Assembly (NCBI GenBank): GCA_024401475.1
Contig: JAKSKZ010000013.1
Location: 6,284 to 70,283, forward strand
Source: Paludibacteraceae bacterium
GTDB lineage: Bacteria > Bacteroidota > Bacteroidia > Bacteroidales > Paludibacteraceae
Length of the DNA stretch: 64,000 nt
Direction: 5' to 3'
A model generated the notes under the pieces. The model was not told the origin of the DNA, ran no database searches, and saw nothing but the letters and a program-made list of their open reading frames with translations. The translations under genes were made by a program, and so were the position numbers. Of this stretch, positions 4,028 through 16,804 are shown one piece after another (positions within the stretch are counted from its first letter, which is position 1; every line of letters starts with the position of its first letter).

Positions 4028-5587
4028 ATGGTATATAATAACATACAACTTGTTGTTCTGCCCAAGCAGTCTGTTGTAGAGTCTGAGCTAAAAAAGGTAG
4101 TGGGAGAAAAGATAAAAGTCGCTCCTAATCGCATTAATACGGTTCGTATTACGAGAAAATCAATTGATGCTCGTTCCAAGCAAGTGAAGGTGAATCTTTG
4201 TGTGGATGTCTATACAGACAAGAGCCAGCCCGAGGCTATTCAATATCCGTTCCATTATCAAGATGTGAAAGGGAGGCCCGAGGTGATTGTTATCGGTGCG
4301 GGACCTGCTGGATTGTTTGGGGCTTTACGTTTGATTGAATTTGGACTCAAACCAATTGTTTTTGAGCGAGGTAAAGAGGTGGGCGAACGAAAGAAGGATA
4401 TTGCCCAACTTAACCGAAACAACGGTCTTAACCCGGAGTCGAACTACTGCTTTGGAGAAGGCGGTGCCGGTACATTCTCTGATGGCAAGTTGTTTACTCG
4501 TATCAAGAAGAAGAAAGATTGCACACGAATATTGCTCAACTTTCACCAGCATGGTGCACAGGACGAGATTTTGTATGAGGCACATCCGCACATTGGTACG
4601 GACAAATTGCCTGTCGTCATCAAGAATATGCGTGAAACGATTTTGAAATACGGTGGTGAGGTGCATTTCGAGAGCAAAGTGACCGAGATTTTGACGGAAG
4701 GTGATGCTGTCAAGGGTGTTCGTTTGGCGGATGGTACTGAACGTATGTCAAAGGCGATAATCCTTGCGACGGGTCATTCGGCAAGAGATGTTTACGAACA
4801 TCTGCAATCGAAAGGAATAGACTTGGAGGCGAAAGGATTTGCAATGGGCGTGCGTGTGGAACATCCGCAGGCATTGATTGATAGAATCCAATATCATAGT
4901 CCTAAGGGCGATTATCTGCCTTCGGCTGCCTATACGCTCGTCACTCAGGTGGAGGAACGAGGTGTTTACTCCTTCTGTATGTGCCCTGGTGGCTTTATTG
5001 TACCGGCCTCAACCGGCGAAGGGGAAACTGTGGTGAATGGAATGTCGCCTTCGCACAGAAATTCGAAGTATGCCAATTCTGCCATTGTCGTGGAGATTCG
5101 TCCTGAGGATTTGACTGAATATCAAGAGTATGGTGTGATGGCAGGACTGAAGTTCCAACAGGCCTACGAGAAACTTTCGTTCGAAAATGGTGGTGGAAAT
5201 GCGGTGGCTCCTGCCCAGCGTTTGCAAGACTTCATTCAAGGCAAGAAATCCAAAGATTTACCGCAGACATCTTATGTTCCAGGCATCATCTCGTCCGAGA
5301 TGAGTTCGTGGATGCCTAAGTTTATCGGCAAGCGGTTGCAGGCTGGATTCAAGGATTTCGATCGAAAGATGCGTGGCTTTGTAACCAATGATGCCATCAT
5401 CATCGGCGTGGAGTCCAGGACCTCCTCTCCTATTCGCATTCCAAGAGATGCGGAGACTTTGCAGCATGTGACCATAAAGGGTTTGTATCCTTGTGGCGAG
5501 GGAGCCGGATATGCAGGCGGAATCACCTCTTCAGCCATGGACGGAGAGGCTTGTGCCGAAAAGATTTCCGAGTTTCTTTCTAAGTAA
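4028..5587 (+). CDS. NAD(P)/FAD-dependent oxidoreductase (COG2509-like)
   Basis: 519 aa. Rossmann dinucleotide motif VIGAGPAGLFGA. The overall layout matches the widely conserved FAD-dependent-protein family. It sits 4 nt after the kinase gene. Confidence 0.75.
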   Translation: MVYNNIQLVVLPKQSVVESELKKVVGEKIKVAPNRINTVRITRKSIDARSKQVKVNLCVDVYTDKSQPEAIQYPFHYQDVKGRPEVIVIGAGPAGLFGALRLIEFGLKPIVFERGKEVGERKKDIAQLNRNNGLNPESNYCFGEGGAGTFSDGKLFTRIKKKKDCTRILLNFHQHGAQDEILYEAHPHIGTDKLPVVIKNMRETILKYGGEVHFESKVTEILTEGDAVKGVRLADGTERMSKAIILATGHSARDVYEHLQSKGIDLEAKGFAMGVRVEHPQALIDRIQYHSPKGDYLPSAAYTLVTQVEERGVYSFCMCPGGFIVPASTGEGETVVNGMSPSHRNSKYANSAIVVEIRPEDLTEYQEYGVMAGLKFQQAYEKLSFENGGGNAVAPAQRLQDFIQGKKSKDLPQTSYVPGIISSEMSSWMPKFIGKRLQAGFKDFDRKMRGFVTNDAIIIGVESRTSSPIRIPRDAETLQHVTIKGLYPCGEGAGYAGGITSSAMDGEACAEKISEFLSK

Positions 5588-5617
5588 TCCTAAATAATCA
5601 GGTCTTGCGAAGGTTTC

Positions 5618-7189
5618 TTACACCTTCTCGATTTTGCAAGTGTGTTTTTTTGTTTTTTCGTCGTAGTTGATGCCAACGAAGAGTACATCGCCCTTGTATT
5701 GGGTCAAGGCCTGACAATAGTTTTTGGCTTTTATCTGCTCAATGGCGCTTTCTGCACTCTTATTGTGTTTTAGTTCAATTACCAGCGCAGGGATATTGGG
5801 CAAATAAGGAATCAGCACCAAGTCGGCATAGCCTTTGCCTGTCGGCAGTTCTTTCACCAGTGTATAGCGCGTGTTGGCGTAGAAATAGGCCAAGCAAATG
5901 GCACTTTGGAAACAGTGCTCGTCGTTGTAGGTGAGCGGATTGGTCACCTCCGTATGTGCGGCGTCTAACGCTTTTGCAACAGCATCTTCGTCGCCGTTTA
6001 CAGTGGCGTCGAGCAATTTCTTTGATGCGTTGACGATGGTCATAAGTTGCTTATAGTCAGGGCTGAGTTTGACGGACTGAATCCACTGCTGGCGTACCTC
6101 CTCATTGGGTATTTTACAGGTTTTGGTATCCCATTCATAAGAGAGGTATCCCAAATGAATCAGATAAGTAAACACATGGTCTTTGGACTTAAAGCAGTCC
6201 AGCGTATTTAAATATCCATATATGTCAACTTCAACAGAATTTCCTGCGATCATACTGACGACATCCTGCCTAATACCCTCAAAGTCCATGAGTATATACT
6301 CTTGTAATGCTTCAAAAGAACCAGTGGCGGACCAATAACTATCCATTCGCTTACGGATAATTGCCGATACTACTGATTTTGGGTTGAACAAGCTGACTTT
6401 GTCACTGAGTTTATATCCATTGTACCATCGCTCAAACTCTTTGAAATCACAGCCATACTGGTTGCAGAGTTGTTCGGTCTCCTCACGAGTGAAGCCGATG
6501 TGTGCGGCAAACCTATCCGCATCAGTCATCGTATATTCGTCAAACTCGTTCAATTTCGATTGTATTTTGTCTCTAACAATGGGGATGATGCCGGTAATAT
6601 AAGCAAGGGCTATGGCCGGGCGGAGCGTGGCGTTTTTGAACAAGCCGTTTAAGAAACTCAGATAGCTTTGGAAAAGTGAATCGGGAACTTGTTCACGCAC
6701 CAACACATCGTACTCGTCGATGATGATGACGAATTTTTCATTGGTGATTTCATATACGCGAGTTATACATTTGGCGATGTTGTCCGTCTCTTTAAAGGTG
6801 ATGGCGGGGAACTGTTTTACAAATTCCTCTCTTAATGTTTCATCAATTTCCGCTATTAACAAGTCTTTAGAAACTGCTGTTTGGTACAAACCGTTCAAAT
6901 CCAACTTGATTACATTGAACTTGTTGAGGTACTTGTCGTAGTTGGGTGTCTGACCGAACTTCATTTTAGCGAATATTTCGCGGGTGTCACATCCCTTCGA
7001 GTAGTAGGCTGAAATCATGTTGCCCGCCATGCTCTTTCCGAAACGGCGTGGGCGAGACATGCAGACAAAGTCGTGGTCTGTTTCAGCAATTTTGTTCAAT
7101 TCTGCCAAAATCAACGATTTGTCCACATAAATTTCATTTCTTAGACTTTGTTTTAAAGCCTCTGCGTTCGGATTCAGATATAAGCCCAT
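5618..7189 (-). CDS. AAA-ATPase-like protein with C-terminal PD-(D/E)xK nuclease-like domain (PDDEXK_9 type)
   Basis: 523 aa. Motifs: SRPRRFGKSM (Walker A-like), VIIIDEYDV (Walker B), and C-terminal GKGYADLVLIP...VIELK. It is a paralog of the 41978..43591 gene. Confidence 0.8.
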   Translation of the reverse strand: MGLYLNPNAEALKQSLRNEIYVDKSLILAELNKIAETDHDFVCMSRPRRFGKSMAGNMISAYYSKGCDTREIFAKMKFGQTPNYDKYLNKFNVIKLDLNGLYQTAVSKDLLIAEIDETLREEFVKQFPAITFKETDNIAKCITRVYEITNEKFVIIIDEYDVLVREQVPDSLFQSYLSFLNGLFKNATLRPAIALAYITGIIPIVRDKIQSKLNEFDEYTMTDADRFAAHIGFTREETEQLCNQYGCDFKEFERWYNGYKLSDKVSLFNPKSVVSAIIRKRMDSYWSATGSFEALQEYILMDFEGIRQDVVSMIAGNSVEVDIYGYLNTLDCFKSKDHVFTYLIHLGYLSYEWDTKTCKIPNEEVRQQWIQSVKLSPDYKQLMTIVNASKKLLDATVNGDEDAVAKALDAAHTEVTNPLTYNDEHCFQSAICLAYFYANTRYTLVKELPTGKGYADLVLIPYLPNIPALVIELKHNKSAESAIEQIKAKNYCQALTQYKGDVLFVGINYDEKTKKHTCKIEKV

Positions 7190-7308
7190 ACTATAGCTAT
7201 TTTAATTGCAAAACAAATATAAACAGAATATTTGATAATATGTTGTCAAACTTGAAAACGCCAATTAGAAGCCGTTTAAATTTTAAACAGCTTCTAATTA
7301 TGGGAACA

Positions 7309-8148
7309 TTATTGCTTGTTTTTTCTTCTCTTTCTAATTAAGTAGAAAATGACGCCTAAAATGATGAGAATTGGCCAAATATAGAAGATGGCAATGATGA
7401 TTGCCTCAATCAAATCGATGCTGCCACTAAGGGCGTCGGCAAGGCGAGATCCAAAAGAAGGTTCATATTTGCGGGCGTCCGAATCCGCACTTGAATAATC
7501 AGAAATTCTCAACTCGATCTCTAATTCGCTATATGCCACCATTTTATCGATGTTGAGCTTGGCTTGGGTGTGTCGGTCCAATTCTTCTTGAATGCCATCG
7601 ATTTTAGTTTGTATTTCGATGATTTCCGATATTTTGTTGGCTCTTTTTAGCAACACTCTATATTGTTCCAGTGCGGCTTCTTTGCTTTTGATGGAAGATT
7701 GAAAGTCTGAATAGTATTCAGTCATATCCTTCACGGTAATCGTCTTATGAGTCATTTTCCCTCCAATGGAGTACAACTCATCTAAGAATGCATAAAAGTT
7801 GCCGGCAGGAATCTTCGCCGTTGAACTGTAGTTCCATGAGTGTTGCGAATCTTCCGTTTTGTAACCATTATATTTGGCTATGAGCTTGTTCAATTTTTTC
7901 GATACTGAATCTACCGTAGCCTGAGTTACGTCGAATGTGACATTTCCAGATGTGACCAACTTTCGGTCTGTTGGAAGGGCTGGCGCAGGAGGTGGTGGCG
8001 GTGGAACTTCTCCACTAGTTAGAGGCGCTTCTTCGCACTCCACCATTGCTTCATCTGCTGACTCTGCATATGCTTGATCGTGACTCTTTCCGCAAGCAGT
8101 AGTCAACAATATGATTGTTGTGATCAAAATGAATTTTAAGTGTTTCAT
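7309..8148 (-). CDS. DUF4349-like lipoprotein
   Basis: The track ORF extends to 8259. The plausible start is the ATG at 8146-8148, giving MKHLKFILITTIILLTTAC (lipobox). A poly-proline linker PPPPPPAP, a coiled-coil region and a C-terminal TM helix follow. Confidence 0.65.
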   Translation of the reverse strand: MKHLKFILITTIILLTTACGKSHDQAYAESADEAMVECEEAPLTSGEVPPPPPPAPALPTDRKLVTSGNVTFDVTQATVDSVSKKLNKLIAKYNGYKTEDSQHSWNYSSTAKIPAGNFYAFLDELYSIGGKMTHKTITVKDMTEYYSDFQSSIKSKEAALEQYRVLLKRANKISEIIEIQTKIDGIQEELDRHTQAKLNIDKMVAYSELEIELRISDYSSADSDARKYEPSFGSRLADALSGSIDLIEAIIIAIFYIWPILIILGVIFYLIRKRRKNKQ

Positions 8149-8167
8149 AATTATGAATTTAAAAGCA

Positions 8168-9037
8168 TTACAATTTGTCTTCTTTGTTTTTAATAGCATA
8201 GAATGCCTTAATCTCATCCATCTTTTGTTTGGCTGCTTCCCTACCCATGGCATAGACATGACGCATTTTCGTTTCGTTTTGTTCCGTCCTTCCGATGGGG
8301 AGTTCGTCTTCTGGATAGATGAGTAAGGTGTTGCCTAACTGTTCCTGTTCGGAGATGTAATCCAATTCGCGGTTGTACATAATATGGCGCACCGCCATTG
8401 CTTCTGCCACTTTGGGCGTTTTGCGGAGCAGGAATTTTAGGATAGGCATAATCTTAGGCTGCGTCTTCTTGAAGCCTTTAGGCTGCGTTAACACGACGAT
8501 GTTGCGGTCGTAGCCTTGGCTTTGGAAATACTGTAAAGGGATGGAATCGGCCATGCCTCCGTCCAACAGGCGATAACTGCCTATGCAGACCGGTTTGGAT
8601 AGGCAAGGCAAAGATGCCGAAGCACGCAACCATTCAATCTCTTCATATTCAAACTTCTCCAACCTTCGATAGACCGCCTTGCCCGTATCAACATCCGTGC
8701 AGACAATGTGAAAATCTATCGGACTGGCGGCAAAAGTCTCCTTGTCGAATACGTCCAACTCCTTGGGCATATAGTGGTAACTGAATGGACCGTTGACCAA
8801 ATCGCCAGTCTGGATGAGCGATTTAAGCCCCATATAGCGTGGGTCGTCTTTGAAACGAATGTTGTATCTCAGCACGCGTCCCGGCTGGTTGGATTTGTAG
8901 TTGCAGCCAAACGTGGCTCCAGCAGAAACGCCAACAACTCCATCAGGTTGGATGCCGTTCTCCATCATTTCGTCCATGATGCCAGCCGTGAATAGTCCTC
9001 GCATACCACCGCCTTCTAAAACCAAACCTTTTTTCAT
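8168..9037 (-). CDS. patatin-like phospholipase
   Basis: The start is refined to the ATG at 9035-9037 (MKKGLVLEGGGMRG). It has the oxyanion motif GGGMRG, the nucleophile elbow GVSAG, and the Asp of the catalytic dyad in LLDGGMAD. Confidence 0.85.
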   Translation of the reverse strand: MKKGLVLEGGGMRGLFTAGIMDEMMENGIQPDGVVGVSAGATFGCNYKSNQPGRVLRYNIRFKDDPRYMGLKSLIQTGDLVNGPFSYHYMPKELDVFDKETFAASPIDFHIVCTDVDTGKAVYRRLEKFEYEEIEWLRASASLPCLSKPVCIGSYRLLDGGMADSIPLQYFQSQGYDRNIVVLTQPKGFKKTQPKIMPILKFLLRKTPKVAEAMAVRHIMYNRELDYISEQEQLGNTLLIYPEDELPIGRTEQNETKMRHVYAMGREAAKQKMDEIKAFYAIKNKEDKL

Positions 9038-9242
9038 GCTATAAAATCCTATTTTGAGTTTGCAAATATAAAAAATCCACCCAAAGAAACAAAAAATAAA
9101 GGATGTGTCTTGAATTTGCACACTTTGACTATACATTTGCTTAATCTGTTGATTGGTGAAAATTATTATTAATCGGTAGAATGTAATATATCATATCTTG
9201 CTAGTTTTTATATGCTTGTGGCAAAATCTTACAACCATGGAA

Positions 9243-9279
9243 ACAAAAAAGGTCAGAAAGTTTTTCGCTCTCTGACCTT
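9243..9279 (-). terminator. rho-independent terminator downstream of panB (bidirectional shape)
   Basis: A 9-bp stem (aaggtcaga at 9249-9257, tctgacctt at 9271-9279) is preceded by an A-run on the plus strand, which is a T-run on the minus strand. It lies 25 nt after the panB stop. Confidence 0.55.
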
Positions 9280-9303
9280 GATTTTTATTAGTCTAAACGC
9301 TTT

Positions 9304-10122
9304 TTAGTATTGCTCGTTTTCGTTAGGGAAATCACCTGATTTGACGTCCGTGATGTACGATTGCACGGCATTGGTGATTACCTCGTGCAAATCTGCGTAA
9401 CGGCGAAGGAACTTAGGTGAGAAGCCCTTGTTGATGCCGAGCATGTCGTGCATAACCAATACTTGTCCGTCGGCTCCGTTTCCGGCACCGATACCAATGG
9501 TCGGAATGGTAAGAGCCTTGGAAACCTCCGTGGCCAACTTGGCTGGAATCTTCTCCAAAACGATGGCATAACAGCCTGCTTGTTCCAACAATTTAGCATC
9601 GTTGATGAGTTTGGCCGCTTCTGCGTCGTCTTTTGCTCTAAGGGCGTATGAACCATATTTGTTGATGGATTGAGGCATCAAACCTAAGTGACCCATGACA
9701 GGAACGCCTGCGTCTATAATCTTCTTGATTGTGCCTACAAACTCCTCTCCTCCTTCAATCTTGACAGAGTCTGCTCCAGATTCTTTTAGAATACGAATGG
9801 CAGAGCGAACGCCTTCTGCTTCATCGCATTGATAACTACCAAATGGCATATCAACTACAACATGCGCGCGTTTAACACCTCTAACAACGCATTGTGCGTG
9901 GTAGATGAGTTGGTCAAGTGTCACAGGAATTGTCGATGAGAAACCTGACATGACGTTGCCTGCGGAGTCGCCGACAAGGATCACGTCCATTCCAGCCTGG
10001 TCGATGATAGATGCCATGGAGTAGTCGTATGCTGTAAGCATAGAGATTTTCTCTCCGTTGGCTTTCATATCTGCCAAAGACTTGGCTGACACTTTTTTAA
10101 TGCTTTCATTATGTACTGACAT
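9304..10122 (-). CDS. panB: 3-methyl-2-oxobutanoate hydroxymethyltransferase
   Basis: 272 aa, recognisable as PanB along its full length ([39 protein letters not shown]). Confidence 0.93.
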
Positions 10123-10403
10123 CTCTCTTTGTTTTTAAGGGAAGTTTTCACTTCCATTGTTAAAATTAAGAAATAAGGCTTTCCTTACGGTTTAGACTAA
10201 GGAAGTCCCTTTAATAATTCTATACAAAGTTATCTTTTTTGTTAAAAGATTCATCTTAAAAATTATGAAAAATGATGGGCCTAAGTTCAAATAAGAAGTG
10301 CAAAAATAATCCTCGAAAGACGAAGCGTTCATGTCTCATGTAAGATTGTTGTACGACACCATTTTTCGGTTTCAAAACGAAGAGATCTACACCGAACCCT
10401 TCC

Positions 10404-11360
10404 CTACTTAGCTGATTCGAAAAGAGTGTGGCTAAAAATACGGCACTTTTCTTCGATAAATTGGATTCTCAAAGTTGCATCAATCCATGGCTGCGGTATG
10501 CCGCAAGGTCCACCAACTCCATAGATGATGCCTGCCAATCCGCCAGTGACGCAGGCAACCGTGTCTGTGTCGTAGCCGAAATTCACGGCAGCCAGCACCG
10601 CCTCTCTGTAGCTTGCCGTATGGTGGATGCACCAAAGCGCCGTCCGCAACGTGTCGACGACATAGCCAGTACTTACCACCTCTTCGTCTTTGACGAAAAG
10701 AAGGTCGTAAAGGGTTTTGTAAACGACCACCTTCGTTTTTTCTGAAGCAGTCTTTACGGCATCGTCAAACGGAATGCCCCGCATCAAGTCGCGCGCGATA
10801 TTGATGCAGATGACGCAAGCCTCGGTAGATTGTTCATGAGCGTGCGTCACAGCCGACGCCTGCCTGATCTCGTCATCCGAAAAGTTGCAGAATGCCATCG
10901 GCAAGATTCTCATAAGAGAGCCGTTGCCGTTCTCTGACTCATTTCGTCCGCCACAATTTTCAATGGGCATTCCAGCGAGATAGTTTGACATGGCCTTGTC
11001 GATGCAACCGCCCAGACCGAAAGGAGTCTCTTCTATAGAACAATTCTCGCCGGCATCCCACCATTGGATGAATTTCCGCATCATCAGTTCGCTATTCAGC
11101 TTTCCTTTGGCTTCGACAATCGCATCCATGGAGGCAAGTGCCATGGATGTGTCGTCCGACCATGCTCCCCACGGGATACCCGACCAGCGAGACACCCGCG
11201 GGATTCCACCATGCTGCGTATCACAATGATAACCCGAAGCACGGAATGTTCCTCTTGTTTCAAACTCAAAAGGCACGCCCAAAGCATCGCCAACCGCCAT
11301 GCCTAACAGGCAGCTCTTAATTTGCTCAATCGTATATTTCTCTTGTCGTATTGTTGTCAT
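10404..11360 (-). CDS. ADP-ribosylglycohydrolase (ARH/DraG-like) family protein
   Basis: 318 aa with the family motifs GMAVGDALGVPFEF, AWSDDTSMAL and YDTDTVACVTGGLAG, so the metal-binding acidic residues look intact. It is the last gene of a five-gene minus-strand operon. Confidence 0.88.
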   Translation of the reverse strand: MTTIRQEKYTIEQIKSCLLGMAVGDALGVPFEFETRGTFRASGYHCDTQHGGIPRVSRWSGIPWGAWSDDTSMALASMDAIVEAKGKLNSELMMRKFIQWWDAGENCSIEETPFGLGGCIDKAMSNYLAGMPIENCGGRNESENGNGSLMRILPMAFCNFSDDEIRQASAVTHAHEQSTEACVICINIARDLMRGIPFDDAVKTASEKTKVVVYKTLYDLLFVKDEEVVSTGYVVDTLRTALWCIHHTASYREAVLAAVNFGYDTDTVACVTGGLAGIIYGVGGPCGIPQPWIDATLRIQFIEEKCRIFSHTLFESAK

Positions 11361-11422
11361 GGTTAGTCCTATTTGGTTGTTATGAATTCACTGTTTTTCA
11401 TTTTTCGGTAAGAAGTGGCGTA

Positions 11423-12187
11423 TTATAAACTTTTCGGAGATACTCCAATCCCTTCATACCTTTCGTTAATCTCATCGTTGATGATTGGTCGTTGGTGCTG
11501 ATAGAAACCCCTCAAGTCGTCGATGCATTTTCGGAGGCGAGCTGCAAACTGGTCCATTGTAATGTCGGGCATGGAATTGATGAGTTCGAACACGCTATCT
11601 TCGTTTCTTCTGTATATTGAGAAGGAATCAATCATACCTTCGTTTAAGAGTCTTTTGTCTTTCACAAGAAAATCATGGATGTCGTAATCTCTAGTAAAAT
11701 GACTATATCGTTTGATATTGTGAATCTCAAATATGCAATCTGGATGTTGAGAAGAGAACAGACGATTGCTTTTCAGTCTATCGATCAAAGCCTCGTATTC
11801 CAAATTCTTCTGCTTCAATTCAAGACGTAATGCGGCGTTTTTCTGTTCATCCGCAAACGGACGACGCAAATTTCGTGTGAACTCGTAATACGATTTCCAA
11901 CGGATTGACAAATAATTGTCACTCGCCATGTATTCCAACAAGTCGCCAAGTTCCATATCGCCGTTCTCACGATAGAGGGCAGCCTCTTTCTTTAACTCCT
12001 GCCTACTATGTTCCACCAAGTCTTTGTTGATTTGCTTTATCCCAATCCTCAAATCCTTGACGCTATCAAGAACATCATAGTACTCGGCGATCAAGTTGCA
12101 AAATGTTTCCCTCTCATTTGGCATATAATTATCTTTATACCACGCTGACTTAGTTACTAAATCAATCATTAATTGTTTTTTGTTCAT
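11423..12187 (-). CDS. hypothetical protein (paralog of the N-terminal two thirds of 13285..14424)
   Basis: 254 aa, acidic and helical, with no signal peptide or TM segment. It shares blocks with the 13285..14424 product: KSAWYKDNY/QSGWFNQEF, ENGDMELGDLLEY/EDGDMFAAQLIRN, IKRYSHFTRDYDIHDF/TKAKHFNHYTRKHDILSF. Confidence 0.6.
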   Translation of the reverse strand: MNKKQLMIDLVTKSAWYKDNYMPNERETFCNLIAEYYDVLDSVKDLRIGIKQINKDLVEHSRQELKKEAALYRENGDMELGDLLEYMASDNYLSIRWKSYYEFTRNLRRPFADEQKNAALRLELKQKNLEYEALIDRLKSNRLFSSQHPDCIFEIHNIKRYSHFTRDYDIHDFLVKDKRLLNEGMIDSFSIYRRNEDSVFELINSMPDITMDQFAARLRKCIDDLRGFYQHQRPIINDEINERYEGIGVSPKSL

Positions 12188-12223
12188 GACAATAAATTTT
12201 TTTAGTCATCGAAATGACGGGTT

Positions 12224-12781
12224 TTACAATTCTATTTCTTCGTTCGATAAAGTATCAACTACCTGCTGCAACGAGTAAGCTTCGAACTTCTTCTTGGCTT
12301 CAGTATATCTCCTGCTGATTTCTAAAAATGAATAAAACACAGTATGAAATCGATTGAAGCTCATAGATTTCACCCTTCCATCGGGGTAAACGATGCCGCA
12401 ACAATTTGCGCCACTAAGGGGGCTGCCCCCCCATCTATAAGTAAGTGCATCGTTTCCTTCTTTGTCTTTTGTCGTATCAACTTCGCAATTAAGCCACCAT
12501 TCAAGATAGATGCCCAAGGTCGGGGTGGATCTGCATTTCCCTGAAATGGACAATCCGTTTTCTATCGGAACAGGGGCTAAAAACATCCGGCTGTCGCTAA
12601 AAATGCGGTGTGCGTTCCGAAAGAAGAGAAATGCATTTTTTAAGAATAGCCTCCTGTTTGCATCTGCATCAAAAGATGTCGTCTCGTTCACATTCGATTG
12701 CTTTTTTGGGAAACAAGTTAGTTCCTCTCCATTCAACAATACTATTCGATTGTCCGAAACCTCAAACATTTGTTTTTCCAT
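12224..12781 (-). CDS. hypothetical protein
   Basis: The track ORF runs to 12841. The likely start is the ATG at 12779-12781 (MEKQMFEV), which leaves a 26-nt spacer after the upstream gene. I recognise no motif. Confidence 0.55.
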   Translation of the reverse strand: MEKQMFEVSDNRIVLLNGEELTCFPKKQSNVNETTSFDADANRRLFLKNAFLFFRNAHRIFSDSRMFLAPVPIENGLSISGKCRSTPTLGIYLEWWLNCEVDTTKDKEGNDALTYRWGGSPLSGANCCGIVYPDGRVKSMSFNRFHTVFYSFLEISRRYTEAKKKFEAYSLQQVVDTLSNEEIEL

Positions 12782-12807
12782 AAGATTGAATTTATAGAGA
12801 TTATTAA

Positions 12808-13227
12808 TTAAAACTCTTGGGCGATTTGAGCATCGCCCCATTTATGGGCTTTTTTATAGCGGCAAACCTCCGCATTCAGCAAAGGCAAATATTGTATGAT
12901 GGAGCCTTGCAATTTCTCACAAAAATCCACCATGTCGGCAAACGCCTTCTTTCTGGCACCTTGATGTGAAAGTCTTCTTCCCTCAACTTCATTCCACTCA
13001 TCGCCCTCCTTGCAATGAGAAGTGTATTCTGTTTCTATCACTTCTCCCATCAGCCGATATCCTAAATAGAGAAAAGTATATCGAACTAATCCCCATTGGT
13101 TGGAAATACAAGGTGTTTCGTTGTCACGATTGGTCACAAGGAAACGAAACTTACATTTCACAGTCTTTTCCTCCTCGTTCACCTCATAGTCGGAATGTAT
13201 TTCTTGAATTTTAAAAATCTTACTCAT
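12808..13227 (-). CDS. hypothetical small protein
   Basis: 139 aa. It reads as a beta-rich N-terminal half followed by HCKEGDEWNEVEGRRLSHQGARKKAFADM. That pattern reminds me of small phage or plasmid proteins, but I cannot name the family. Confidence 0.55.
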   Translation of the reverse strand: MSKIFKIQEIHSDYEVNEEEKTVKCKFRFLVTNRDNETPCISNQWGLVRYTFLYLGYRLMGEVIETEYTSHCKEGDEWNEVEGRRLSHQGARKKAFADMVDFCEKLQGSIIQYLPLLNAEVCRYKKAHKWGDAQIAQEF

Positions 13228-13284
13228 ACTATTATAATTATTGGTTTCCTCAGTATATTATAACACAAGAAGAAGGAATTAGAA

Positions 13285-14424
13285 CTATAAGACTTGAAAG
13301 CGTTCCATATTTTTTCTTTTCATCAACTCTTCCAACTTGTTGAGAAAAAAGGTATAATCCTTTTCTGCGAAGAATATATTGAAAAGATCTTTTTTCATTT
13401 TGGCTTTCTCCTCTTTGCTGCTTTCGTCATTTAGAGGTCCGATACAAAATTCGCAGATGAATAAAATCAAACCATGTGACACGTCAAATTGGTTGATATG
13501 AGGAGAATACTTCATCATTTTCTCGATTTCAGCTTTGAAGTCGAAGCCTAACTTTGCTGCATCCAGCAGATGCTCTATTTTTTCCGCTTGCGTCAATTCT
13601 CTATACTCAGACGAACATGGATCGAAATAGGTTCGGACAGACGACGTTATCTTTTTGCATGCCTCCATCGCTTCCGTCATGCCATACAAATTCTTCTTTT
13701 CCAAAATCAATTGGTCCAGTTCGCTTTCGCAATCGTAGATGGCATTTATCGCCTTCTCGACATAATCATCCATCCAAGACAAAAGCTCTGTTGCCCCTGT
13801 TTCCTGCAACTTTTTGTAAATTTCCATTTCGCCCAGTCTATAGGAAGGGAAAGAGACGGAAACCTCATCCGAATATAATCTAAAACTCAATATGTCATGC
13901 TTACGTGTATAATGGTTGAAGTGTTTTGCTTTAGTGATTTTCAATAAGTTGAAAACACTTTTCTCTCCTACTTTGAGTTGATCTATATCTCTTAATGCAG
14001 ATGATGAGTTGCTCGGCAAAATCAATTGTTCCAATTTGCTGACAATTCGTTGATACTCAACCTCCATTTCGGCTTTTTGACTCAAGAAAAGTTGTGGATT
14101 CTCGTTGTCTCCTTCAATACAGCGTTTGATGTTGTGAGCACAGAATTTTCTATAATCGTCATAGTCCAAATGGTTTCTGATTAATTGGGCTGCAAACATA
14201 TCGCCATCCTCTTCTTGTTTAAGTGCAAGTAATTCCAAGGTATAATCGGCGTATTCCCTCAATTGAGAATTGAAGCGATCCATTTTCAACCCTACCTCTC
14301 TATACAGTTCTTGATATTCGAAGTATTTCTTAATTATTTCCTCAAAAGCAACTTTTTGCTCGTCTGTGAATTCTTGGTTAAACCAACCAGACTGCTTTAC
14401 TCTATTTAACTCTCTCTTCTTCAT
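13285..14424 (-). CDS. hypothetical protein (longer paralog of 11423..12187)
   Basis: The track ORF starts at 14469. Alignment with the paralog favours the ATG at 14422-14424 (MKKRELNRVKQSGWF). It is the first gene of the operon, with no recognisable catalytic motif, Walker motif or TM segment. Confidence 0.6.
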   Translation of the reverse strand: MKKRELNRVKQSGWFNQEFTDEQKVAFEEIIKKYFEYQELYREVGLKMDRFNSQLREYADYTLELLALKQEEDGDMFAAQLIRNHLDYDDYRKFCAHNIKRCIEGDNENPQLFLSQKAEMEVEYQRIVSKLEQLILPSNSSSALRDIDQLKVGEKSVFNLLKITKAKHFNHYTRKHDILSFRLYSDEVSVSFPSYRLGEMEIYKKLQETGATELLSWMDDYVEKAINAIYDCESELDQLILEKKNLYGMTEAMEACKKITSSVRTYFDPCSSEYRELTQAEKIEHLLDAAKLGFDFKAEIEKMMKYSPHINQFDVSHGLILFICEFCIGPLNDESSKEEKAKMKKDLFNIFFAEKDYTFFLNKLEELMKRKNMERFQVL

Positions 14425-14594
14425 AAGCTCGTAATTTATATTCTTTAACCATATATAAAATGAAATCATGAAATTAGAACCACATCGGAGGGATTTTATA
14501 TTTATCGATTGTGTAAAATGCTTGTTTTTAGATTATTATGATATAAAAATAGAAACGTTTTTTTACTTCATAACTTGGATAGTTTTTTTTGTTC

Positions 14595-14690
14595 CTTGAT
14601 AAAAGTGTAATGATATGACATTTTTATCTTGATAAAAGTGTAAGTAAATAGCATTTTTATCTTGATAAAAGTGTTGTACTGTAAAAAATG
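14595..14690 (+). repeat. three tandem copies of a 33-bp unit (core cttgataaaagtgt)
   Basis: The core recurs at 14595-14608, 14628-14641 and 14661-14674, a 33-bp period. Copies 2 and 3 share catttttatcttgataaaagtgt. The repeats lie immediately upstream of the DUF4143 ATPase gene. Confidence 0.8.
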
Positions 14691-14692
14691 AC

Positions 14693-14700
14693 TATTTTTG
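14693..14700 (+). promoter_or_regulatory. candidate Bacteroidetes -7 promoter box (TAnnTTTG)
   Basis: tatttttg at 14693-14700 matches TAnnTTTG. It sits 16 nt upstream of the ATG at 14716, and the TTG of repeat copy 3 lies about 30 nt further upstream. Confidence 0.4.
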
Positions 14701-14715
14701 CAGAAAATTAGATTT

Positions 14716-15999
14716 ATGCAAAGAGAATGTTTTGAACAACTTATAGAGTGGAAAAATAGTTCGAGAAGAAAACCTTTAATAGTAGAGGGAGCTCGCCAAG
14801 TGGGAAAAACATGGTTGGTGAAGGAGTTCGGCAATAGTCATTACCAAAATTGTATCTATATCAATTTTGAACAAGAAAAGAAATTACAGGGTTTGTTTGA
14901 ACAAGATTTAAATCCTAAAAGGATTATCGAGACATTGCAACTATATGCTAATAAGTCTATAACGCCTAATGACTCTCTCTTATTCTTTGACGAAATACAA
15001 GCTGCGCCATCAGGGATAACATCGTTGAAATATTTCTACGAAAATGCACCTGAATACCATGTCATTGCTGCAGGTTCTCTTCTTGGCATGAGTGTGCATA
15101 CAGGAGAATCTTTCCCTGTTGGAAAGGTGAACTTTCTCCAAATGCATCCAATGTCCTTTGTGGAATTTTTAAAGGCAATTGGCAAAGAACAATTGGCGAA
15201 TGCTCTTTTGAATCAAAGATGGGACATCCTTCATCCTTTCCACGACGAACTATGTAAGGCATTAAAACAATATCTTGTAGTAGGGGGAATGCCGGAAGTC
15301 GTAAAGGAGTTTGCCGAAAGAAGAAATTTTAATGATGTTCAAGAAATACAACGAGATATACTAGATTCCTATGAACGTGATTTTTCCAAGCATGCACCAA
15401 TAAACGAACTTCCTAGAATACGGCAAGTTTGGGAATCAGTTCCTGTTCAACTTGCAAAAGAGAATAAGAAATTCATTTATGGATTGTTGAGAGAAGGAGC
15501 TCGAGCTAAGGATTACGAACTTGCTATCAATTGGATTTGCGACGCGGGCTTGCTTTTGAAGAATAACCGTATTATAAAACCGGAATTGCCGTTGTGTCAT
15601 TATGTCGAGTCAGATATATTTAAGTTGTATCTTGTCGATGTGGGATTACTTTCCGCATTAAGCAATCTGCGTCCGGAAATAATACTTGAAGGGAATCGTA
15701 TTTTTACTGAATATAAGGGAGCTCTAACAGAGCAATTCGTACATCAGCAGTTAGTCCAAAACAAATACGAAGGCGTATATTATTGGACAAACGACCGCAG
15801 TACAGCTGAAGTTGATTTTGTGATTCAGAAAGATGGTGAAGTCGTGCCGATTGAAGTAAAGGCAGAGACTAATGTCCATGCAAAAAGTTTCAAACTGTTT
15901 TGCGAAAAATACACTCCTTCAACGGCAATTAGGACGTCAATGTTGCCGTATAAAGAAGAAAGTTGGATGACGAATGTTCCTTTATATGGAATCATGTAA
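14716..15999 (+). CDS. AAA family ATPase with DUF4143-type C-terminal domain
   Basis: Walker A is EGARQVGKTW and Walker B is LLFFDEIQ. The C-terminal part resembles the restriction-endonuclease-like DUF4143 region (STAEVDFVIQKDGEVVPIEVK). The start is taken at the second ATG (MQRECFEQLIEWKNSS) because that is how this family typically begins. Confidence 0.82.
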   Translation: MQRECFEQLIEWKNSSRRKPLIVEGARQVGKTWLVKEFGNSHYQNCIYINFEQEKKLQGLFEQDLNPKRIIETLQLYANKSITPNDSLLFFDEIQAAPSGITSLKYFYENAPEYHVIAAGSLLGMSVHTGESFPVGKVNFLQMHPMSFVEFLKAIGKEQLANALLNQRWDILHPFHDELCKALKQYLVVGGMPEVVKEFAERRNFNDVQEIQRDILDSYERDFSKHAPINELPRIRQVWESVPVQLAKENKKFIYGLLREGARAKDYELAINWICDAGLLLKNNRIIKPELPLCHYVESDIFKLYLVDVGLLSALSNLRPEIILEGNRIFTEYKGALTEQFVHQQLVQNKYEGVYYWTNDRSTAEVDFVIQKDGEVVPIEVKAETNVHAKSFKLFCEKYTPSTAIRTSMLPYKEESWMTNVPLYGIM

Positions 16000-16030
16000 A
16001 GGTTTGTCATTCAACAAACAACCCCAAGCC

Positions 16031-16804
16031 TTATAGTAACGCAAACTTGTCGGCATCCTTATAAGCTGGGAATTTCGATCTGAAGCGGTCTAATCCTTCT
16101 TTGTTGAGTTCGATGGTCTTGATTGCTTCTTGGTCGGGCTCAAAGTTCAAGATGCAAGCACCTTTGTAATCATAAATGGCAGAGTGCCCTACATGGGCAA
16201 ATCCCATTCCGTCCTCGCCTATTCTATTACAACCACAGACATACGCCTCATTTTCAACAGCTCTGGCTGGAAGCAGGACGTCCCATGACGAGATGCGTGC
16301 GGTAGGCCAATTGGCCGTGTATATGAGTAAGTCGTACTCGTTTTCTTGGTTTCTGGCCCATACGGGGAAACGCAAGTCGTAGCAGATCAACAAACGGATA
16401 TTCCATCCTTTGTAGGAGATGATTTCCTTGCTCTCTCCTGCCGAATAAGATTCGACCTCTTTCCCTATGGAGAACAAGTGCTTTTTGTCTCTGAATTGAC
16501 AGTTCCCATCAGGAGTGACGAAGAAGCCTCTATTGAAGTATTTCCCTTCTTGGGTGGCTGCAAAACTACCACAGATGGCCATATCGTATGCTTTTGATAA
16601 TCGTTTGATTGTCTGCATAGTATTGCCATCCTTTGTCTCTGCAATGCCTTGTGGCGTCATGCTGAAACCTGTGCTGAACATTTCTGGCAGAACCAATAAA
16701 TCGGCCCCGTCTTTCCCCATCTTTGCCAACTCATTTTCTATTTTTTGCAAGTTGGATGAGGGGTTCTCCCAAGCTATGTTATATTGAAATATGGCTACTT
16801 TCAT
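16031..16804 (-). CDS. carbon-nitrogen hydrolase (nitrilase superfamily, omega-amidase-like)
   Basis: 257 aa. The Glu-Lys-Cys triad appears in the expected contexts: LLVLPEMFSTG, FRDKKHLF, RLLICYDLRFP. Its ATG overlaps the stop of the upstream gene by 1 nt. Confidence 0.85.
   Translation of the reverse strand: MKVAIFQYNIAWENPSSNLQKIENELAKMGKDGADLLVLPEMFSTGFSMTPQGIAETKDGNTMQTIKRLSKAYDMAICGSFAATQEGKYFNRGFFVTPDGNCQFRDKKHLFSIGKEVESYSAGESKEIISYKGWNIRLLICYDLRFPVWARNQENEYDLLIYTANWPTARISSWDVLLPARAVENEAYVCGCNRIGEDGMGFAHVGHSAIYDYKGACILNFEPDQEAIKTIELNKEGLDRFRSKFPAYKDADKFALL

Follow-up and report, generated by a model that had tools for sequence, protein, structure and literature searches.

We analysed a 64,000-nucleotide stretch of the Paludibacteraceae bacterium assembly GCA_024401475.1 (contig JAKSKZ010000013.1, positions 6,284 to 70,283; hereafter the window), in which a cassette of five minus-strand genes, four uncharacterised genes (g1 to g4) and a terminal ADP-ribosylglycohydrolase gene (ARH), lies in an accessory island of about 5.8 kb. 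Our preferred reading, to which we give a probability of roughly 45%, is that the island is a horizontally inserted ADP-ribose eraser module without a writer, that it is directed against foreign ADP-ribosylation, and that it constitutes a Bacteroidales variant of the predicted ARG-centric systems. ADP-ribosylation often serves as a weapon, both in conflicts between phages and bacteria and in those between bacteria, and to our knowledge little has been learned about how cells reverse modifications made by enzymes from outside. In the mechanism that we propose, a foreign ADP-ribosyltransferase (ART), encoded by a phage or secreted as an effector by a competitor, would modify a host protein, most likely on arginine because the nearest characterised relatives of the ARH are the arginine-specific Tri1 and DraG. 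The ARH would then strip the ADP-ribose from the modified host protein, with g4/g1 and g3 serving as non-catalytic or novel accessory factors (in target recognition, chaperoning or sensing) and not as the writer. Coordinates follow the numbering of the window, and the lengths of g1 and g3 are counted from the ATG chosen in the initial annotation unless stated otherwise:

10241-16040, no strand assigned: accessory island of about 5.8 kb, comprising the five-gene cassette and a divergent DUF4143 ATPase gene
13285-14424, minus strand: g1, 379 aa (394 aa with an upstream ATG)
12808-13227, minus strand: g2, 139 aa, orphan protein
12224-12781, minus strand: g3, 185 aa (an upstream ATG would give 205 aa and overlap g2)
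11423-12187, minus strand: g4, 254 aa, predicted helical protein with a beta-hairpin
10404-11360, minus strand: ARH, 318 aa, ARH/DraG-type ADP-ribosylglycohydrolase

An open reading frame (ORF) listing confirmed the five genes where the initial annotation had placed them, with spacers of 57, 26, 36 and 62 nt from g1 to the ARH at its chosen starts, and ORFs and Pfam together confirmed the flanks it had named: panB downstream of the cassette and the divergent DUF4143/AAA_14 ATPase gene upstream. Family alignments agree with the 379-aa start of g1 and the 185-aa start of g3. The ARH had been described as the only recognisable gene of the five, and so it proved, its Pfam match being full length and g1 to g4 having no credible match in Pfam, PHROGs, PADLOC or NCBIfam. 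Sub-threshold matches of these four to PHP, DUF6471, RecX and an endolysin PHROG lay far under the cut-offs and were discarded as noise.

The ARH matches Pfam PF03747 at 2.7e-59 and 201.7 bits (cut-off 26.2), residues 17-284 covering model positions 2-283 of 287, and also matches PHROG 6572 (9.5e-64). Its nearest solved structures are Lmo0067 (8za7, 8e-39), Tri1 (6dre, 7e-33), the T. thermophilus ARH and DraG. The metal-binding motifs, earlier read as intact from the translation, could be aligned with their counterparts in Lmo0067 and Tri1: GDALG and SDDTS correspond to GD-LG/GDAIG and SDD-S/TDDTS, and at the DTDT site the first Asp is conserved in both, the motif reading DTDT in Lmo0067 and DADS in Tri1. 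Judged by these alignments the protein is an intact PF03747 member and a predicted hydrolase. Of 401 genomes of the family 15 carry it, most genomes of the genus lack it, and beyond the genus the best match reaches only 44% identity; with its location in the acquired insertion of about 5.8 kb, this distribution is not that of a housekeeping gene. At the 13 other ARH loci in the family, no g1/g4 or g3 gene lies within about 1.5 kb.

No known writer accompanies the ARH, as the initial annotation had remarked, since g1 to g4 match no ART or SIR2 family. That one of the four might be a cryptic writer had also been suggested, and here the structure models argue otherwise. The AlphaFold2 model of g3, built on an alignment of 55 sequences, has a predicted local distance difference test score (pLDDT) of 84.9 and a predicted template-modelling score (pTM) of 0.82; Foldseek found no match to it among PDB folds (best E-value 0.26, template-modelling (TM) score at most 0.24) or among the viral folds of BFVD (best E-value 0.39), and the predicted fold is unlike any in the PDB and BFVD libraries searched. 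The g4 model, from eight sequences (pLDDT 83.5, pTM 0.72), consists of long helices and one beta-hairpin bearing a conserved H-x-T-x-x-H-D-I, and against the PDB it drew only generic helical bundles and BAR domains (best E-value 0.68). Taken together, the g3 and g4 fold searches gave no match with an E-value below 0.26 or a TM score above 0.27, and a search of solved structures by sequence (the g2 sequence, and profiles of g3 and g4) gave nothing under an E-value of 0.08. A cryptic ART, Sir2, macro or TIR fold in g3 or g4 was rejected on these confident models, which have no such match. Within what the models cover, the suggestion of a writer among the four accordingly found no backing: neither g3 and g4 nor, through paralogy, the N-terminal half of g1 matched an ART, Sir2, macro or NADase fold. 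In the whole genome, ADPrib_exo_Tox has no match, nor does DarT (Pfam) or DRAT, though for the latter two the control genomes were equally silent. Another contig of the same genome encodes a 324-aa protein (L141, G000:C4:7969-11202, positions 997-1971) with a C-terminal PARP-catalytic-like domain (37 bits, above the Pfam cut-off) and an N-terminal half that by eye resembles membrane-spanning helices; it is possibly an endogenous ART, unlinked to the cassette.

The island is an acquired one. In the same-genus species G001, G002 and G005, panB and a CN-hydrolase gene are directly adjacent (gaps of 129-207 nt), and nucleotide homology of the window to these three genomes stops at about 10136-10240 on the panB side and restarts at about 16041-16050; from this adjacency and the break in homology it follows that about 5.8 kb was inserted in the window. 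No flanking direct or inverted repeats and no att-like sites were found at the island edges, and positions 10241-16040 contain no recombinase ORF and no repeated intergenic cassettes, only a 33-bp promoter repeat in three copies. The panB/CN-hydrolase junction is an insertion hotspot, because relatives carry other insertions at the same junction and on the other side of panB. At the junction itself, panB and the CN-hydrolase gene lie about 2.1 kb apart in the same-genus species G003 (L057, G003:C23:71200-73450), and the ORFs between them by eye resemble decayed, duplicated remnants of Rpn/PDDEXK-type transposases. On the other side, a strain of the window species (L004, 2412-6297) has five small unknown ORFs and a gene for a 474-aa AAA ATPase between panB and a patatin gene.

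Inside the island, g4 and the ARH form a conserved, mobile two-gene core, because a sister species has the pair at another locus. There (G005), a g4 ortholog (61% identical) lies 38 nt upstream of an ARH (79% identical), flanked by genes for an outer-membrane efflux protein and a small lipoprotein and not at panB, and a second contig (L013) carries the same pair. The first gene of the cassette is related to this core: g1 is distantly paralogous to g4 (BLASTP 9e-10, 23% identity over about 200 aa) and has an additional C-terminal extension of about 180 aa. Their family is rare. When 1.84 billion representatives were scanned in full with HMMER, a joint g1/g4 profile gave 6 matches, and g1 itself was not found in 40 related genomes and has a single 93%-identical cluster of relatives among 5.8 billion proteins. 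The second gene, g2, is a species-restricted orphan, its only relatives being 95-96% identical copies within the same species, with no homolog in four same-genus genomes, INPHARED or PDB sequences. The notion of a five-gene syntenic unit found no support, as the full set is present only in strains of the window species, at the same locus. Because only g4 and the ARH travel together elsewhere and g3 has other partners, the supposed operon is best described, on comparative evidence, as a mosaic assembled around the g4 and ARH core.

The members of this mosaic also differ in composition and in recent history. The GC content of the ARH is 0.51, against 0.38-0.42 for g1 to g4, and within the species dN/dS is about 0.2 for the ARH, about 0.4 for g2 and about 0.5 for g1, with g4 almost invariant. 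Between the window and two other strain contigs (L005 and L007), g4 differs at 1-2 of 762 nt, the ARH at 36-38 of 954 and g1 at 44 of 1137; a near-identical g4 beside a diverged ARH points to a sweep or a recent recombination event limited to g4.

The most useful result concerns g3, whose family has a confidently modelled fold without a match in the structure libraries and is tied to erasers by its neighbours. It is an unnamed Bacteroidales family of 99 protein clusters (34-57% identity), with 190 loci in species-representative genomes. Among the best 80 of these loci, 79 have Bacteroidales-lineage titles (Paludibacteraceae, Prevotella, Bacteroidaceae, Muribaculaceae), and most come from gut and rumen samples; the family is rare in an evenly drawn sample of the order, with 2 of 301 genomes carrying it. 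The typical member is about 350 aa long with a C-terminal coiled coil, the window g3 being a short form, and the family shares the motifs DSRMFLAPV, PTLGxYLEWW, GSPLSGxN and RYxxAKxxYEAY. In the alignment E94 and N126 are invariant and D63, S64, R65, S120 and D134 nearly so. Fusions to sigma-70 region 2, to leucine-rich repeat (LRR) domains, to long coiled coils or to a NADAR-like N-terminus occur in a few members. The remaining one of the 80 loci is a 5.7-kb contig labelled Bifidobacteriaceae (L071) with three tandem g3-family genes, which is probably misbinned because the other 79 carry Bacteroidales-lineage titles. In Hoylesella loescheii An865 (L065, 5602-6531), a 129-aa ORF that by eye closely resembles the sigma-70 region-2 N-terminus of the g3 fusions P0053 and P0054 directly precedes a short g3 gene, and an ARH lies 3 kb downstream.

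Neighbours of the g3 family were counted within 6 kb on either side of the best 80 of the 190 loci. A divergent NADAR gene is present at 13 of the 80, usually about 13 nt upstream on the same strand and sometimes duplicated; all 14 of the g3-adjacent NADARs that were tested match Pfam NADAR, and YbiA is the sole PDB match of the profile of these neighbours. A microbial-type PARG is found at 9 loci, an NrtR-type Nudix regulator at 3 and an ARH at 2, one of the two being a fusion to a DSP/R-P phosphatase. In the sister species G005, the g3 ortholog is directly upstream of genes for an NrtR-type Nudix regulator and a microbial-type PARG, with 15 kb separating it from g4 and the ARH. Phosphatases and phosphoesterases recur as well: NT5C (a HAD 5'-nucleotidase) at 11 of the 80 loci, a calcineurin-like phosphoesterase (Metallophos) at 6, and a LigT-like 2H phosphoesterase at 5 by neighbour clustering, with Pfam LigT_PEase in 3 immediate neighbours. 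When the 150 immediate same-strand neighbours of g3 genes were classified by Pfam, NADAR was the commonest family. As background, an even sample of the order has NADAR in 9 of 101 genomes and PARG in 1 of 101, and chance co-location (12 kb of a genome of about 3.5 Mb) would predict far fewer than one locus. Recognised erasers or regulators occur at 24 of the 80 loci, and the varied gene orders suggest several independent associations between g3 and erasers. On this contextual evidence the g3 family is tied genomically to four classes of ADP-ribose erasers. The link to ADP-ribose biology that the initial annotation had drawn for its uncharacterised genes is thus upheld by context for at least two of them, through the g4-ARH pair and through the g3 family beside NADAR, PARG, NrtR and ARH. 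No relatives of g1, g2 or g4 occur at any of the 80 loci, and BspA-type LRR proteins are the only neighbours that g4 and g3 family contexts share.

Other genes recur near the g3 family. An AAA ATPase of about 580 aa is present at 15 of the 80 loci, and HNH, SprT-like and serine-recombinase genes are also frequent. The locus with the ARH fusion (L060, 187-5341, in a Bacteroidaceae metagenome-assembled genome) is ordered AAA ATPase, g3 homolog (347 aa), 196-aa unknown and ARH-DSP/R-P fusion (445 aa). Directly downstream of g3 genes in 11 loci lies a gene for a 262-aa truncated MetK-like protein with S-AdoMet_synt_N only (for example L092, 7050-7838, and L103, 7050-7838), often with a serine recombinase a few genes on.

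ARG-centric systems were predicted by Iyer, Burroughs, Anantharaman and Aravind in 2022 to counter viral ADP-ribosylation (PMC9503650, section 3.8). Their components are an uncoupled eraser, a Nudix transcription factor, R-P, calcineurin-like or HAD phosphatases, extra NADAR or macro domains, and variable, fast-evolving accessories (PMC9503650). A Nudix-HTH or WYL-HTH regulator is found in more than 42% of them and a coupled phosphatase, of the R-P/DSP, calcineurin-like, HD or HAD 5'-nucleotidase type, in more than 55%; an ARH-DSP/R-P fusion is their core architecture (PMC9503650). The window cassette resembles them in having an ARH without a coupled ART or sirtuin, as far as family matches and the g3 and g4 models go, and in further hallmarks: the patchy distribution of the ARH and g3, the rarity of the g1/g4 family, the varied gene orders, and dN/dS values of 0.4-0.5 for g1 and g2. 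Other g3 loci supply an NrtR regulator, an ARH-DSP/R-P fusion, calcineurin-like and HAD 5'-nucleotidase enzymes, and NADAR and macro erasers. It is because this list of g3-family partners matches the predicted system almost item for item that we favour a Bacteroidales variant of it; and because the window copy has neither regulator nor phosphatase, we speak of a new variant rather than a member. The two differ further in that the g3 and g1/g4 families are absent from the list in section 3.8 (vWA, SseB, TY-Chap1-3, ARPP, restriction endonucleases (REases)), g3 lacking the invariant Cys and Gln of ARPP, and in that the window module is from Bacteroidales, whereas ARG-centric systems, themselves predictions only, are reported from actinobacteria, planctomycetes and proteobacteria (PMC9503650).

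Signals that bear on transcription of the cassette, and the remaining gene of the island, are as follows:

10311-10325, minus strand: terminator-like hairpin followed by a T-run, 3' of the ARH stop (consensus scan)
14588-14686, no strand assigned: three 33-bp tandem repeats with a TTTTTATCTTGATAAAAGTGTAA core, filling the promoter region from which g1 and the DUF4143 ATPase gene diverge (repeat search)
14698-15999, plus strand: DUF4143/AAA_14 ATPase (Pfam AAA_14 and DUF4143; PADLOC candidate PDC-S01, 3e-187)

The consensus scan found no second terminator-like site on the minus strand of 10300-14500 and none between the five genes, and the Bacteroidetes -7 box (TAnnTTTG) is absent from all four internal spacers. 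A sigma-70 promoter scan was disregarded, its site count being no higher than in shuffled sequence. The 33-bp repeats could be operator sites common to both divergent transcription units. The link of the ATPase to the cassette may be positional only, the gene being an independent passenger, because this 3.6-Mb genome has about 17 genes of the kind. In another contig (L031), one DUF4143/AAA_14 ATPase gene lies about 5 kb from a g4-family gene.

Several observations weigh against a dedicated eraser module. The window island has no Nudix-HTH or WYL-HTH regulator, and its cassette no phosphatase. The g3 neighbour counts are of raw loci, without correction for shared ancestry, and at 56 of the 80 loci no recognised eraser or regulator lies within 6 kb. 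The link between g4 and the ARH is known from two species of one genus, and four other g4-family loci (L030, L031, L032 and L144) have no ARH. Transcription from g1 through to the ARH is predicted only, and plausible because the lone minus-strand terminator follows the ARH and the spacers have no -7 box. Both g1 and g3 appear dispensable to the ARH because both are broken in one strain contig: L005 carries a nonsense codon in g1 (4454-5593, Q207 to stop) and, in g3 (6097-6655), two 1-nt deletions in the GSPLSG motif, its most conserved one, with one of the deletions in a G7 run, while g2, g4 and the ARH are intact; an assembly error is possible. Finally, the polar conservation of the g3 family suggests catalysis over a passive accessory role.

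This last point also favours a toxin-antidote or abortive-infection system, in which g3 (or g4) would be a NAD-consuming or ADP-ribosylating toxin with a new fold and the neighbouring eraser an interchangeable antidote, after the manner of DarT with a macro or NADAR antitoxin and of Tre1 with Tri1. We consider this unlikely. Three unrelated eraser folds do lie directly beside g3-family genes, NADAR typically about 13 nt upstream; the invariant and near-invariant polar residues are of the kind expected in an active site; the surroundings contain no other writer; and the strain that inactivated g3 kept its ARH, as happens with toxins. However, the fold in the confident g3 model resembles neither ART nor Sir2 nor TIR, 56 of the 80 loci have no recognised eraser within 6 kb, and in the window g4 separates g3 from the ARH. 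Two or three g3 genes standing in tandem (L071, L094, L097) also speak against it, and the fusions to sigma-70 region 2, LRR domains and long coiled coils are atypical of a toxin. The narrower proposition, that the g3-family domain is an unrecognised NAD+- or ADP-ribose-using enzyme, a new writer or toxin with ARH, NADAR and PARG antidotes, strikes us as quite unlikely; if true, it would make a new Bacteroidales class of toxin-antidote or abortive-infection system. A different objection is that the island may simply be mixed cargo of a hotspot, with g4 and the ARH as one unit and g1, g2, g3 and the DUF4143 ATPase gene as independent hitch-hikers. This is possible, if on the unlikely side: co-occurrence of the five genes is limited to the window species, g3 is 15 kb from g4 and the ARH in the sister species, GC content and strain divergence are uneven along the cassette (0.51 against 0.38-0.42; 1-2 nt in g4 against 36-38 in the ARH), g1 and g3 are decaying in one strain, and the same and the next junction carry other insertions in relatives. 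Yet the genes run tightly spaced in one direction up to a lone terminator-like site, the conserved partner of the ARH has a paralog in g1, and a chance landing of g3 beside an ARH is unlikely for a family that is independently linked to erasers in many genomes.

An endogenous regulatory cycle of the DraT/DraG type, with its writer encoded elsewhere in the genome, seems very improbable. The relationship of the ARH to DraG and the membrane-anchored PARP-catalytic-like protein (37 bits) on another contig would fit it, but an enzyme that is missing from most genomes of the genus and family and that sits in an acquired island is unlike a housekeeping switch, its score of 119.6 bits is well short of the DraG equivalog cut-off of 337 (TIGR02662), and DRAT has no match, with the reservation about the control genomes already made. 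The window ARH also stands apart from DraG as a gene of an accessory island and not of the nif regulon. Among the readings offered in the initial annotation, an accessory ARH in an acquired insertion with no known writer has thus been supported, and a hidden writer, phage cargo and five-gene synteny have not.

The writer-less eraser module that we favour can be set against several other known systems. Tri1, which protects Serratia proteamaculans against Tre1 in its type VI secretion system (T6SS), shares the ARH fold, and orphan Tri1-like protectors are, like the window ARH, erasers that lack their writer. In Tri1 an N-terminal extension occludes the cognate effector; the window ARH, in contrast, aligns with positions 62-358 of the Tri1 model NCBIfam NF041672 from residue 6 onwards, leaving no room for such an extension, and scores 143.2 bits against an equivalog cut-off of 490. 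Also unlike Tre1/Tri1, there is no adjacent Tre1-type ART (by the g1 to g4 families, and with no ADPrib_exo_Tox in the genome), and the ARH has a conserved helical partner gene, g4. Acquired interbacterial-defence (AID) and recombinase-associated AID (rAID) islands are acquired orphan-immunity arrays of Bacteroidales, rAID being marked by a recombinase and repeated intergenic cassettes. The window island is like them in bringing small, acquired, possibly protective cytoplasmic proteins without recognised function into a gut Bacteroidales, but 10241-16040 has neither recombinase nor repeated intergenic cassettes and no known immunity family was detected; the idea of a recombinase-associated immunity island found no support. 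DarT is paired with a macro or a NADAR antitoxin, and orphan NADARs of phages act in counter-defence (bioRxiv 10.1101/2024.07.11.602962). The g3 family resembles these in placing an uncharacterised protein beside interchangeable erasers (NADAR, PARG/macro, ARH). The window cassette departs from DarTG in that its eraser is an ARH, it contains no macro or NADAR domain and the g3 model has no ART fold, and the family departs from phage orphan NADARs in that it was not found in the phage collections searched.

An origin of the cassette as phage-derived cargo, one of the explanations first considered, received no support. Single-protein scans of IMG/VR with g1 and g3, which reach close relatives only, and a scan with the g3-family profile found nothing; nor did searches of INPHARED with g2, g3 and g4 or of PLSDB with g3, and g1 to g4 have no match in PHROG. 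A viral or plasmid origin of g1 to g4 was rejected, there being no match in those collections in which each of them was searched. The ARH is the sole cassette gene with phage relatives, distant ones (30-35%) in jumbo phages of other phyla.

The locus would add to the predicted ARG-centric systems a version from Bacteroidales of gut and rumen, and to eraser systems two uncharacterised families, g3 and g1/g4. The g3 family is present in records of named strains (Hoylesella loescheii An865, Prevotella pectinovora P4-76 and Prevotellamassilia timonensis Marseille-P2831), and if these are cultured isolates, its role as eraser accessory or novel toxin could be tested directly; either outcome would give this unnamed family a function.

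A writer-less cluster of erasers was also seen in a genome of another Bacteroidales family, where seven genes lie together without a g3-family member (L139, G417:C1:602000-616000, positions 5068-10143). They encode NrtR, NADAR, ARH, microbial PARG, a macro-like 157-aa protein, a 104-aa unknown and a MacroD-like protein, NADAR and PARG being assigned by Pfam and the other five by eye from their translations.

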